Shown piece by piece: positions 15,001 to 21,000 of a stretch of 53,140 nucleotides of DNA. Positions within the stretch are counted from its first letter, which is position 1. The number at the start of each line of letters is the position of its first letter. This DNA is from a virus (taxonomy: Duplodnaviria > Heunggongvirae > Uroviricota > Caudoviricetes): the IMG/VR virus record IMGVR_UViG_2872703611_000002; one strand, given 5' to 3'. Made by a program: the position numbers.

Positions 15001-18000
15001 CCGGTGAGATAAACGGCAACTGCCGGAAAATCCGCCCCATCAAAAACAGCGGGGCGACCATCAAAAAACGTCGCCCCGGTGTCATGCTTCTCCAGTGCAT
15101 CCAGTACGGCTGCACGGAGTTCAGTATGTTTCATCGCTTTATTACTATCCTCAGTTGATGCTGCAGCGCATAGCCCAGCTCTTTCGGAAGACGTTCACGC
15201 CGTATCCGTTCAATATTCTGTTTAAACGCCGTGGTAAGCGGCACCGCCATCGGGATTTTCACCACATCAATGGGGTAACGGTTTTTCCCGGCCACACGCT
15301 GCATGACATGCCACCGGCCATTTTTCAGTTGCTGAATAAACGCGCCGGGAATACGACGGTTTCCCACCACAAGCACGCTGCCGCCACCTTTCAGGGATGA
15401 ACGCTGCCCCTTTTTACGACGCCTGCGGCGCGAAAGGACAACCCGCGCGTTACCCAGCTTGATTACGGGCAAATCCCCCCGGTTAACCCTGATTCTGGCC
15501 TGCGGATTTTTGACCGTGGCCCTTTTCAGCCTGGCCCTTTCCTTTACCAGTTTCCGGCGTACCTTTGTCTCACGGGCAACCTGTGACGCAGACTGCGATA
15601 TCGCGGATGACGCAACGCGGTTAATGGTCATTGCGGCGGCACCAGGCACCGCCGTTTTGCTGATACGGCTGAGGTTTTCAACGGCCTGCTCAAGACCTTT
15701 TATGGCCATACATCCCCCTTTCAGCGGCGACGGTTAACGGCAGGCGGCACGCCACGCCCAAGCCAGAGATGACAGCTTCCGCCATCATCCGGCGAAATCC
15801 GGTCCACCCAGAAGTTTTCCTCGCCGATGGTCAGTGTGTCTCCACGCCGCAGCTGCCGCACATCATCAGTCCGGACAAACAGGGACGGGCTGGAGCCTTC
15901 AACGCGCACCCCCTGTCCGGCATAGCTGATATTTTCAGGGTCATCAAAAACACCACGTATCACAGCACCGGACAGCTCACCGGATGTCATGGTGGCTGAC
16001 GTTCCCATGTACCCGCGTATCGTTTCATCGGCGCGGGCAATGGCAGCATCGAACAGGTTATCGGAATCAGCCACAGCGCCTCCCGTTATTGCATTCTGGC
16101 CAGGCCATGTTCTGTCATTTCGGCTGCCACACCGGCAGAGACACGAAACGCCGTTCCCGGCAGCACAAATGCCACAGGCTCATCCCGCGTGGCGTGAAGT
16201 GCATCAGTATGCAGCGTCACCAGTGCCACGACCGTGACCAGAGCAGCCGTATCAATCACGGTATCCGGCTGCGCTGATACCACCTCATTTTCATGTCCGG
16301 TCAGCGCATTTTCCGGGCTGAGAGGGGTATCCTGATCGGCAGTGTCATCAAGCTCCTCTTCCAGCTCTGCCACACGGAGCGCCAGTTCTTCTTTCGTCCC
16401 CGTCAGGCTGACATCACGGTTCAGTTGCTCACCCAGCTCCTGAAGACGGGCAATCAGTTCATCTTTCGTCATGAACTCCTCCACAGAGAGAAAATGGCCC
16501 CGAAGGGCCATGATTACGCCAGTTGTACGGACACGAACGCATCAGGATCAGCCAGCAGCATCAGCGGTGCTGACTGAATCATGGTGAACTCACGCGCCGG
16601 ATCGCCGGTGGTCACCCAGTTTTTCGGGTAGCGGGCAGAGGCGTTAATACCTTCGCGCTGTGCGTCCGCATCCTGAATGCAGCCATAGGTGCGCAGACCG
16701 CGTGCCTGAGTGTTCCCCAGCACCATCGTGTTGTCCGGAAGGAAGTTCTTTTTGACGTCGTTTTCCACGTACTGTCCGGAATACACGACGATCGCCGTAT
16801 CGCCATACATCCCCTTATAGGACACCGCTTCGCCCAGGTCTTTTACCGCTGTCTCCAGCTCGGAATTAGAGCCGCGACGGGTATCCAGCTTCTCCTTGAC
16901 GGCTTTGAAGGAACGGAACAGCGCCCAGCCTTTCGGATCAAACACGATGATATTCACCACGCCGCTGGCGTTCAGCGCGTAGGCTTCGATATCGTCGGTC
17001 GGGTCATACGTGGACTTGTCACGCTTGCTCCACTCCGTGCCGCCGGACTGCGTGATGTTGTTGGCCGCACTGCGGCCCATATCCACCTCAACCGGATCGA
17101 AAGCTTCACCGGTCATGGTGTATTTGCCCTTAAGCACGGCAGAAACTGCCTGCATCTCTTCGACCTGGGCAATGGCCAGCTCTTCGTCACGCATGTTCTG
17201 CATAATGATGCGACGGCGGCGGTAAGCCGGGTCCGCCAGATTCTGCGGATCTTCATCCGGCAGGCGACGCAGGGTCATCTGCGGATTCACCTCATGCTTC
17301 GGCTTGACATATCCCGGCGTAAATTCAGAGGTGGAGCCGCCACGGGAGCGGATAACCTCACCGGAAACAATCGGCGAAACGTACAGCGCCATGTTTACCA
17401 GCCCCGGAATTTGTGAGAGATAGACTTTCTCCGTGGTGAAGGGATAGCTCTCACGGAAAAAGAGACGCAGAAACAGCGGATCAAACTTAAATTTCTGCTC
17501 ATTTGCCGCCAGCAGCTGGGCGGTTGTGTACATCGACATAAAAAAATCCCGTAAAAAAAGCCGCACAGGCGGCCTTTAGTGATGAAGGGTAAGGTTAAAC
17601 GATGCTGATTGCCGTTCCGGCAAACGCGGTCCGTTTTTTCGTCTCGTCGCTGGCAGCCTCCGGCCAGAGCACATCCTCATAACGGAACGTGCCGGACTTG
17701 TAGAACGTCAGCGTGGTGCTGGTCTGGTCAGCAGCAACAGCAAGAATGCCAACGGCAGCACCGTCGGTGGTGCCATCCCACGCAACCAGCTTACGGGTGG
17801 AGGTGTCCAGCATCAGCGGGGTCATTGCAGGCGCTTTCGCACTCAATCCGCCTGGCGCGGTTGCGGTATGAGCCGGGTCACTGTTGCCCAGCGGCTGGTA
17901 ATGGGTAAAGGTTTCTTTGCTCGTCATAAACATCCCTTACACTGGTGTGTTCAGCAAATCGTTAACGGCATCAGATGCCGGGTTACCTGCAGCCAGCGGT

Positions 18001-21000
18001 GCCGGTGCCCCCTGCATCAGACGATCCAGCGCAGTGTCACTGCGCGCCTGTGCACTCTGTGGGTAACCGGCTCATTTAAACCGTCTGGTCTGTTTCCTCC
18101 GGCTCTACAAAAATAATGTCCATCATTTTTAATGGACACTATCGTATGAAACACCGGACCTGGATCACTGAAGCTTTACGTCTTCACTTTGAAGAACATT
18201 TACCCCGGGTTGTGGCCGGGCGTCGCCTGGGTGTACCAAAATCAACAGTTTGTAGTATGTTCGTGCGCTTTCGGAGAGCTGGCCTTTCGTGGCCTTTGCC
18301 CGCAGGCATGTCGGAGCAGGAACTTGATGCCTGCCTTTACGGACAATTTTCCACGGTACCAGTCGTACGTCCTGAAAGCACCGTTATATCCGAAGCCCCC
18401 GTGGTAAAAAAACGTCCCCGGCGGCCCAACTTCCCTTATGAGTTTAAAATCGCCTTAGTGGAGCAGTCACTGCAGCCCGGAGCCTGTGTGGCGCAGATCG
18501 CCCGGGAAAACGGAATCAACGATAACCTGCTCTTCAACTGGCGCCATCAATACCGGAAAGGTGGCCTGCTGCCTTCCGGAAAAAATATGCCGGCACTGCT
18601 TCCCGTGACGTTAACGCCGGAGCCGGATAATAAAATCCCGGCCCCCGCACAGGAACCAGAGCAGATAAATACACCGCCCGACAGTCTGTGTTGTGAGCTG
18701 GTTCTGCCGGCCGGAACTCTCAGGCTTAAAGGTAAACTGACGCCGGCGTTATTACAGACACTTATCCGCGAAATAAAAGGGAGCAGCCACTGATGATATC
18801 TCTCCCTGCAGGTTCGCGTATCTGGCTGGTTGCAGGTATCACCGATATGCGAAATGGCTTTAACGGCCTGGCATCAAAAGTTCAGAACGTCCTGAAGGAT
18901 GACCCGTTCTCCGGACACCTGTTCATCTTCCGCGGACGCCGGGGTGACCAGATAAAAGTGTTGTGGGCTGACAGTGACGGACTGTGCCTCTTCACCAAAC
19001 GCCTGGAGCGGGGCCGCTTCGTCTGGCCAGTCACCCGTGACGGCAAGGTGCACCTTACTCCGGCTCAGTTATCCATGCTTCTTGAAGGTATCAACTGGAA
19101 GCACCCGAAACGAACGGAACGCGCTGGAATCCGCATATAACCCGTTGTAAAGTGAGGATATGGACACCTCACTTGCTCATGAGAACGCCCGCCTGCGGGC
19201 ACTGTTGCAGACGCAACAGGACACCATCCGCCAGATGGCTGAATACAACCGCCTGCTCTCACAGCGGGTGGCGGCTTATGCTTCCGAAATCAACCGGCTG
19301 AAGGCGCTGGTTGCGAAACTGCAACGTATGCAGTTCGGTAAAAGCTCAGAAAAACTTCGTGCAAAAACCGAACGGCAGATACAGGAAGCACAGGAGCGAA
19401 TCAGCGCACTTCAGGAAGAAATGGCGGAAACGCTGGGTGAGCAATATGACCCGGTACTGCCATCCGCCCTGCGCCAGTCTTCAGCCCGTAAACCGTTACC
19501 GGCCTCACTTCCCCGTGAAACCCGGGTTATCCGGCCGGAAGAGGAATGCTGTCCTGCCTGTGGTGGTGAACTCAGTTCTCTGGGATGTGATGTGTCAGAG
19601 CAACTGGAGCTTATCAGCAGCGCCTTTAAGGTTATCGAAACACAACGTCCGAAACAGGCCTGTTGCCGGTGCGACCATATCGTGCAGGCACCAGTACCTT
19701 CAAAACCCATTGCACGCAGTTATGCCGGAGCGGGGCTTCTGGCCCATGTTGTCACCGGGAAATATGCAGACCATCTGCCGTTATACCGCCAGTCAGAAAT
19801 ATACCGTCGTCAGGGAGTGGAGCTGAGCCGTGCCACACTGGGGCGCTGGACAGGTGCTGTTGCTGAACTGCTGGAGCCGCTGTATGACGTCCTGCGCCAG
19901 TATGTGCTGATGCCCGGTAAAGTCCATGCTGATGATATCCCCGTCCCGGTCCAGGAGCCGGGCAGCGGTAAAACCCGGACAGCCCGGCTGTGGGTCTACG
20001 TCCGTGATGACCGTAACGCCGGTTCACAGATGCCCCCGGCGGTCTGGTTCGCGTACAGTCCGGACCGGAAAGGTATCCATCCACAAAATCACCTGGCCGG
20101 TTACAGCGGTGTGCTTCAGGCCGATGCTTACGGTGGTTACCGGGCGTTATACGAATCCGGCAGAATAACGGAAGCCGCGTGTATGGCTCATGCCCGGAGA
20201 AAAATCCACGATGTGCATGCAAGAGCGCCCACCTACATCACCACGGAAGCCCTGCAGCGTATCGGTGAACTGTATGCCATCGAGGCAGAGGTCCGGGGCT
20301 GTTCAGCAGAACAGCGTCTGGCGGCAAGAAAAGCCAGAGCCGCGCCACTGATGCAGTCACTGTATGACTGGATACAGCAACAGATGAAAACACTGTCGCG
20401 TCACTCAGATACGGCAAAAGCGTTCGCATACCTGCTGAAACAGTGGGATGCACTGAACGTGTACTGCAGTAATGGCTGGGTGGAAATCGACAACAACATC
20501 GCAGAGAACGCCTTACGGGGAGTGGCCGTAGGCCGGAAAAACTGGATGTTCGCGGGTTCCGACAGCGGTGGTGAACATGCGGCGGTGTTGTACTCGCTGA
20601 TCGGCACATGCCGTCTGAACAATGTGGAGCCAGAAAAGTGGCTGCGTTACGTCATTGAACATATCCAGGACTGGCCGGCAAACCGGGTACGCGATCTGTT
20701 GCCCTGGAAAGTTGATCTGAGCTCTCAGTAAATATCAATACGGTTCTGACGAGTCGCTTACCTCTGTGGTGCTGCGGCCAGAATGCGGCGGGCCGTTTCC
20801 ACGGTCATACCGGGGGTTTCTGCCAGCACGCGCGCCTGTTCTTCGCGTCCGTGAGCCTCCTCACAGTTGAGGATCCCCATAATGCGGCTGTTTTCTGCCG
20901 CAACCGCTGCAGTGATCTGCGCGTTCACGTCCGGCTGCGCCGCGCTGGCGTTTTCGCCCTCCGTCGCTGGCACCACGTCAGTAACGTCAGCCTGCGAAGC

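Follow-up and report, generated by a model that had tools for sequence, protein, structure and literature searches.

Insertion of an ISCro1-type IS66 element into the overlapping head genes C and Nu3 of a lambda-like prophage in Escherichia coli

Among described insertion sequences (IS), IS679 and IS66 were reportedly characterised by Han et al. in 2001 as elements of about 2.7 kb with three open reading frames (ORFs), all required for transposition, with terminal inverted repeats and an 8-bp target duplication. The subject of this work is a complete IS66-family element of the ISCro1 type, which lies in a lambda-like prophage within a 53,140-nucleotide stretch of DNA (IMG/VR record IMGVR_UViG_2872703611_000002, Caudoviricetes; hereafter the window) and interrupts the overlapping head protease gene C and scaffold gene Nu3. 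It resembles IS679 and IS66 in size, in its three ORFs, in its inverted repeats and in the 8-bp duplication, the likeness being drawn by description and the transposition of the window copy being predicted. The name ISCro1 was originally given in Citrobacter rodentium ICC168; with 24 copies, it is the most expanded IS of that genome (PMC3072379). The layout tnpA-tnpB-tnpC, the GTAA termini and the 8-bp duplication, which is the target duplication length of IS66 (PMC6778807), are all shared with ISCro1, and only the insertion site is new in the window. Published lengths vary, with 2,824 bp given for 'ISCro1' in a study of ST131 (PMC8764528) versus 2,699 bp here. The name ISCro1, which by convention calls for more than 95% DNA identity to the ISfinder reference, is used here after the RefSeq annotation of 100% identical copies.

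Knock-out of a prophage morphogenesis gene by an IS is a commonplace and known kind of event, and the element itself is a known IS. Prophage Sp4 of the O157 Sakai strain likewise carries an IS in a single head/packaging gene, nu1, of an otherwise lambda-like prophage (Asadulghani et al. 2009, PMC2669165). However, both the IS and the gene are different there, and packaging despite the defect was shown experimentally in the Sakai prophages, whereas the window is known from sequence alone. In O26:H11 strain 11368 and related O26/O111 strains, which together with other relatives amount to more than 100 genomes besides strain 11368, the same IS (2,698/2,699 identical) is inserted in the same orientation in the C homologue of a lambda-like prophage, and RefSeq annotates C of strain 11368 as two pseudogene pieces. 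Unlike the window copy, the IS of strain 11368 lies about 740 bp further upstream in C, is flanked by the duplication TTTTATGT, and cuts through the protease domain instead of removing only the tail. Moreover, it resides in a different prophage at a different chromosomal location, and its insertion is an independent event. The element occupies positions 5341-8039 of the segment of strain 11368 that was examined, and ISCro1 in the same orientation was found at most about 1.1 kb from the C 3' end in 112 genomes, the listed examples being mostly O26:H11 with one O111:H11.

In the window, the element spans 2,699 bp on the plus strand (18063-20761). Its terminal inverted repeats, GTAACCGGCTCATTTAAACCGT on the left (18063-18084, plus strand) and GTAAGCGACTCGTCAGAACCGT on the right (20740-20761, minus strand), are imperfect, open with GTAA, and agree at 16 of 22 positions when the left end is compared with the reverse complement of the right. 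The octamer CTCTGTGG directly adjoins both ends (left copy 18055-18062, right copy 20762-20769). It occurs elsewhere in the 53 kb only once on the plus strand (40554) and once on the minus strand, which is about chance level, and the chance of finding identical 8 bp at both IS termini is 4^-8, or about 1.5e-5. A stand-alone contig of 2,699 bp from an unrelated assembly matches the element at 2,697/2,699 positions and ends in the same way. Since the inverted repeats, the CTCTGTGG duplication and this independent contig agree, the limits of the element are beyond doubt.

The three genes of the element, all on the plus strand, are tnpA (18116-18793), tnpB (18793-19140) and tnpC (19160-20731). The first encodes an IS66 accessory protein of 225 aa with a Pfam HTH_Tnp_1 domain (E 8.5e-15), and the same 678-nt gene is annotated by RefSeq in identical copies. 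The second encodes an Orf2-like IS66 accessory protein of 115 aa (Pfam TnpB_IS66, E 4.7e-40), and the third a DDE transposase of 523 aa (Pfam DDE_Tnp_IS66, E 2.5e-103) with additional N- and C-terminal modules, namely zf-IS66 (E 1.3e-12), LZ_Tnp_IS66 (E 1.1e-12) and DDE_Tnp_IS66_C (E 1.1e-15). All features of the IS66 family that can be read from sequence are therefore present, including tnpA-tnpB-tnpC on one strand, a transposase of the DDE type, GTAA repeats and an 8-bp duplication. The original prediction, which described an IS66-type element of about 2.69 kb with three ORFs, bracketed by a perfect 8-bp direct repeat, is borne out, and its coordinates (17937-20769) were accurate, beginning with the stop codon of the orphaned C 3' end and finishing where the right-hand repeat finishes.

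Genomes of enterotoxigenic and enterohaemorrhagic E. coli (ETEC and EHEC) contain copies, on chromosomes and on plasmids, that match the element with 100% identity over its full length; RefSeq labels them 'IS66-like element ISCro1 family transposase' and annotates tnpA and tnpB in them as accessory genes. Of 5,426 complete E. coli genomes, 1,492 have a copy that spans 80% or more of the element, at up to 34 places per genome; this RefSeq collection does not include CP024667.1, the chromosome to which the window is assigned below. The exact TnpC protein is listed in 22,088 blocks of a public protein-position index. When an exact 40-mer of the left IS end was compared with a collection holding one genome per species, it matched only an Escherichia sp. 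draft genome and two contigs of metagenome-assembled genomes (MAGs), with no match in C. rodentium. Five ISCro1 insertions at five sites each carry their own perfect 8-bp duplication, the copies being at least 2,698/2,699 identical, and near-identical copies with separate duplications indicate recent activity by simple transposition. The near-identical copies at many sites, together with the intact ORFs and the intact ends, point indirectly to ISCro1 as an active and widespread enterobacterial IS.

As well, ISCro1 makes up an entire contig (2,699 bp) of a 'Clostridiales' MAG, and a 2.7-kb contig assigned to a 'Segatella copri' MAG carries it; both probably represent binning contamination from Enterobacteriaceae. 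In the draft genome of Escherichia sp. MOD1-EC7003, about 30 contig ends fall in ISCro1, which suggests that the element is greatly expanded in that strain.

The gene order B-C-(IS)-D-E is collinear with that of lambda. What remains of gene C upstream of the element (20758-21963, minus strand) has a GTG start at 21963, as in lambda, and comprises 400 native codons, after which one Arg codon is read across the junction and a TAA of the IS terminus closes the frame. Over residues 1-400, the resulting 401-aa product shares 98.5% identity with lambda C. The nested scaffold gene Nu3 (20758-21249, minus strand), whose initial Met is C residue 239 as in lambda, keeps 162 of 201 native codons and then receives Arg and the stop (163 aa), and residues 1-162 of lambda Nu3 align to 21249-20764 with 98.1% identity. 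The break thus falls after C codon 400, which is Nu3 residue 162/201, and AAAPQR are the last residues of the frame, whose TAA (20758-20760) belongs to the IS terminus (GTAAGC...) and lies within the right inverted repeat. On the other side of the element, an orphaned C/Nu3 3' remnant (17937-18056, minus strand) holds the last 39 codons and the native TAA (17937-17939), and a tblastn search with the C-termini of lambda C and Nu3 gave a match at 18095-17940. The loss of the last 39 codons with a stop supplied by the IS, as originally proposed, is accordingly found in the frame itself. The S49 protease domain is intact, with a Pfam Peptidase_S49 match (E 1.6e-44) and a match of SppA structures to residues 81-295 (E 5.8e-22).

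In-silico removal of the IS and one repeat copy restores exactly 39 codons and a stop, so that the protein ends in AAAPQSAQARSDTALDRLMQGAPAPLAAGNPASDAVNDLLNTPV. The restored ORF has 1,320 nt, a GTG start and 439 codons, and aligns across the junction with lambda gpC, to which its product is identical at 433/439 residues and its DNA at 1,297/1,320 positions; the flanks therefore form one continuous C reading frame, as had been claimed. Full-length C (439 aa) and Nu3 (201 aa) are restored only by this excision, the window as it stands encoding 401 and 163 aa. The rejoined sequence is also found uninterrupted in nature: 1,200 bp are continuous in lambda J02459 (98.6% identity) and in 79 other phage records, and 300 bp are continuous in 3,199 of the 5,426 complete E. 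coli genomes. In seven ETEC genomes the match is 100%, so the comparison with the same prophage lacking an IS at C, which had been suggested as a check, gives sister prophages that are continuous at the site. From these alignments, the C fragments in the window are identified as a disrupted member of the lambda gpC/gpNu3 family.

We consider it very likely that the locus as a whole reflects a recent ISCro1 transposition into C/Nu3, the structure of which is seen in the sequence and from which we infer a head defect. As the sequence shows, an ISCro1 copy moved recently into the lambda-like prophage by simple transposition, duplicating CTCTGTGG and splitting the overlapping C (S49 head-maturation protease) and Nu3 (scaffold) genes, and both products now lack their shared last 39 residues and carry one foreign Arg. 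In the best mechanistic reading, which is drawn by analogy with other phage scaffolds and prohead proteases, the truncated gpNu3 and gpC would no longer dock onto gpE, or would fail to co-assemble, so that the prophage alone would make no functional proheads. It is a reasonable inference, in agreement with the original prediction, that the prophage is probably unable to assemble heads. The extreme C-termini of the P22 gp8 scaffold and of the HK97 gp4 prohead protease are coat-binding or encapsidation/targeting signals. In lambda, C and Nu3 are essential, with an efficiency of plating below 2e-7 on knock-down by CRISPR interference (PMC10695390), and Nu3 interacts with itself, with C, with the portal protein B and with the capsid protein E (PMC3224144).

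The only serious rival to this explanation, which we regard as unlikely though worth weighing, is that a genuine insertion has only a mild effect: the final 39 residues of gpC/gpNu3 would be dispensable or modulatory, and heads would still form, perhaps at lower yield. It is favoured by what the truncated proteins retain, since the S49 catalytic domain (residues ~81-297) is untouched, the lost 39 residues lying in the region common to C and Nu3, and since 162/201 Nu3 residues are kept, including the well-conserved block 113-162. Conservation among nine homologues, which are about 60% identical overall, speaks on both sides. The Pro/Gly-rich middle of the lost tail (Nu3 181-192) is poorly conserved, with a mean identity of 0.32, which would fit a dispensable segment. 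In contrast, the two other tail blocks, Nu3 163-180 with the motif SAQARxDTALDRLM (0.77) and the extreme C-terminus 193-201 with the motif DLLNTPV (0.70), are conserved although the Nu3 linker 63-112 has diverged to 0.28. Because two blocks are kept while the linker has diverged, the sequences indicate that the C-terminal tail of Nu3/C is a constrained module under purifying selection. The coat-binding or targeting role of the P22 gp8 and HK97 gp4 C-terminal ends, which is general knowledge, likewise argues against a mild effect, as does the oversized genome.

The genome size is a second, independent handicap to packaging. A putative attachment (att) core, GAAATCCATAA (11 bp), lies at window positions 1276-1286 in the truncated ydfJ gene, and its other end lies about 38 bp beyond the int gene and the window end, from which an excised genome of ~51.9 kb was estimated, or ~107% of lambda; without ISCro1, the estimate is ~49.2 kb. 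The accepted packaging limit of lambda is about 105%. The genome would thus be at or above this limit, and even a trans-complemented genome would be packaged poorly.

Several points weigh against a strict loss of head assembly. No published work was found in which 39 residues had been deleted from the C-terminus of C or Nu3, and the truncated C/Nu3 could for this reason be partly functional; nor did the literature give direct experimental evidence for the function of the tail, which also speaks for the mild effect. A PDB sequence search for gpC/gpNu3 returned only SppA homologues over the protease domain, with the scaffold part uncovered, and an AlphaFold2 model of a full-length homologue (17-sequence alignment), which was made for the question of a helix-turn-helix in the tail, had a mean predicted local distance difference test score (pLDDT) of 39 and a predicted template modelling score (pTM) of 0.22, and was left unused. 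The size estimate is approximate, with an att core repeat of only 11 bp, and the packaging limit is taken from general lambda knowledge. Moreover, the C-D junction region is found at 2 places in each record of the sister genomes, so that the lineage probably hosts a second lambda-like prophage, and C and Nu3 could be supplied in trans; such complementation by a co-resident lambdoid prophage is considered possible. A precedent comes from the O157 Sakai prophages, in which genomes with head/packaging defects, including the IS in nu1, are still packaged via co-resident prophages (PMC2669165).

Besides the truncation itself, effects of the element on neighbouring transcription were considered. A promoter and terminator scan of 17.5-21.2 kb gave no promoter-like site, and terminator-like sites were at chance level. 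No evidence was thus obtained for an outward promoter or for strong polarity, and the element probably has little polar effect on D, E and the tail genes, because late transcription is Q-antiterminated, the ribosome-binding region of D is intact, and terminator-like motifs in the IS do not exceed chance.

The truncation of C/Nu3 by simple transposition also appears to be strain-specific and very young, since the junction is absent elsewhere and the flanks are free of mismatches in a sister prophage. None of the 5,426 complete E. coli genomes of RefSeq has the exact IS-C junction. Among about 15 billion proteins, an identical 401-aa product is recorded on a single contig, the closed 5.07-Mb chromosome CP024667.1, whose sequence around the truncated C is identical to the window. 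Apart from the IS, the sister prophage of strain ETEC-2265 has zero mismatches to the window over ~17.0-25.8 kb (to ~25790). Proteins of 392-424 aa in a cluster of 'partial S49 peptidase' members were considered as the same insertion in draft genomes and rejected, as they belong to other alleles and are truncated where their contigs stop (one of them, for instance, ends in AAAPQS). Differences between the window and ETEC-2265 are confined to discrete patches at ~6000-9500 (J/I/K), 12000-13000 (H), 15586-16255 (Z/FII/FI) and 25790-27010 (Nu1-cos), which look like gene conversion between co-resident lambdoid prophages.

The element could instead mark a rearrangement junction, with flanks brought together from different prophages by recombination, inversion or deletion through the IS. 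In favour of this view, several copies of ISCro1 are present in the genome, which probably also has a second lambda-like prophage, and the window does differ from ETEC-2265 in patches elsewhere in the late region. However, an exchange between two copies of the IS would be expected to leave different octamers on the two sides, whereas the matching 8-bp duplication, the exact restoration of the frame and the mismatch-free flanks are those of simple transposition, and the divergent patches (6-9.5, 12, 15.6-16.3 and 25.8-27 kb) lie away from the IS. A rearrangement is accordingly judged very improbable. A related idea, that the IS separates a diverged half of the prophage from an identical one, was rejected, as the mismatches to ETEC-2265 are patchy and far from the IS, with none in ~17.0-25.8 kb. 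Finally, it is scarcely credible that the placement of the IS is an assembly artefact from a collapsed or misplaced repeat, since, although IS copies are a classic cause of misassembly and the junction is present in one public assembly only, a misplaced repeat would not yield a precise 8-bp duplication at the IS termini (~1.5e-5), and the contig is a closed 5.07-Mb chromosome.

ISCro1 is also found elsewhere in the late operon of the sister prophages. Seven ETEC genomes in RefSeq contain this prophage at 99.6-100% identity, which makes eight carriers including the window strain, and the insertion sites in the sisters were placed by coordinate arithmetic on genome matches together with direct inspection. 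Six of the ETEC genomes carry ISCro1 in the terminase gene A with the duplication GTTCATCG, at the window equivalent of 24365-24372; in ETEC-2265, which has this site, the element lies at 22453-25151 of the examined segment. In strain 602354, ISCro1 lies exactly between U and V with the duplication TCACATTT, at the window equivalent of ~14738 (5001-7699 of the examined segment). All eight carriers have exactly one ISCro1 in the late operon, at one of these three sites, and none is free of the IS there. The three insertions share one orientation, with the IS genes antisense to late transcription. By their separate sites and duplications, the insertions in C, in gene A and between U and V are taken to be three independent events in one late operon.

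Among ten unbiased ISCro1 contexts, no phage morphogenesis gene was found, so that insertion into a late operon is not a general habit of the element. The recurrence may have arisen by chance, as prophages are permissive targets and the six genomes with the gene A insertion may be clonal. A non-random hit, through a regional and orientation-specific target preference of IS66 elements or through recurrent selection for the loss of virion production in the ETEC lineage, seems rather doubtful, and selection at the level of the host is not obvious because knock-outs of head genes do not prevent lysis. The recurrence of ISCro1 in the late operon is a minor side observation that bears on the target choice of IS66 elements.

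The window is essentially one prophage, which extends from a truncated ydfJ (1-1284, minus strand) to the stop codon of the integrase gene at 53140. On the evidence of its sequence, it is assigned to ydfJ, the Qin attachment locus of E. coli K-12, on the chromosome of an E. coli related to ETEC (GenBank CP024667.1). Nu1, A, W, B, D, E, FI, FII, Z, U, V, G, T, H, M, L, K, I and J align with their lambda counterparts over the full length with 89-100% identity, and cosN (GGGCGGCGACCT) is present 178 bp upstream of Nu1, in keeping with the earlier description of an otherwise near-intact lambda-like morphogenetic set. Of the two head genes that follow the IS, the decoration gene D (17595-17927, minus strand), downstream of the element in the late transcript, is intact over 110/110 residues with 98.2% identity to lambda D (Pfam HDPD), and the major capsid gene E (16514-17539, minus strand) is intact over 341/341 residues, also with 98.2% identity (Pfam Phage_cap_E). 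Homology with the annotated sister prophage further identifies genes for a repressor, Cro, replication, Q, holin, endolysin, exonuclease, xis and int. The prophage is best described as freshly crippled but otherwise complete, with its lysis, replication, integration and tail genes untouched.

A second IS of the window, a complete IS3 (TGATCTTACCC...GGGTAGGATCA, 42846-44102), is flanked by a 3-bp duplication (GAC) and, in the early region, separates a BCCT-transporter cargo gene from the DUF977/replication genes. ETEC-2265 carries an additional IS100 at the window equivalent of ~42735-42740, where the window has no IS100. The early/nin region also contains a cargo block that is unusual for lambda (36920-42578), comprising a ParA-family gene with two hypothetical genes (36920-38951, plus strand), a gene for a DUF2254 protein (39234-40526, minus strand) and a gene for a BCCT-family transporter (40575-42578, minus strand). 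Other genes in the window are iss/bor (~27134-27427), hokD (~35750-35905) and the genes for tRNA-Gly and tRNA-Thr (30072-30225), and lom is also among the prophage cargo genes. The side-tail-fibre (stf) homologue matches lambda orf-401 over its N-terminal part only, and the corresponding gene of a sister strain is flagged by RefSeq as C-terminally incomplete; two direct repeats of 94 nt, 83% identical and 132 bp apart, lie inside this homologue (2435-2660).

For annotation, C/Nu3, freshly knocked out by the IS, should be scored as the sole defect of an otherwise complete prophage, with its two C fragments entered as a single pseudogene. Neither a published experiment nor a solved structure was found that addresses the tail as a capsid-binding or targeting element of the lambda scaffold or protease. 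The window provides a natural allele of C 1-400 and Nu3 1-162 in an otherwise intact background, which could be used to test whether the conserved tail is such an element. For the biology of these phages, the insertion adds a further example of prophage decay by IS insertion, a process that is well documented in pathogenic E. coli.

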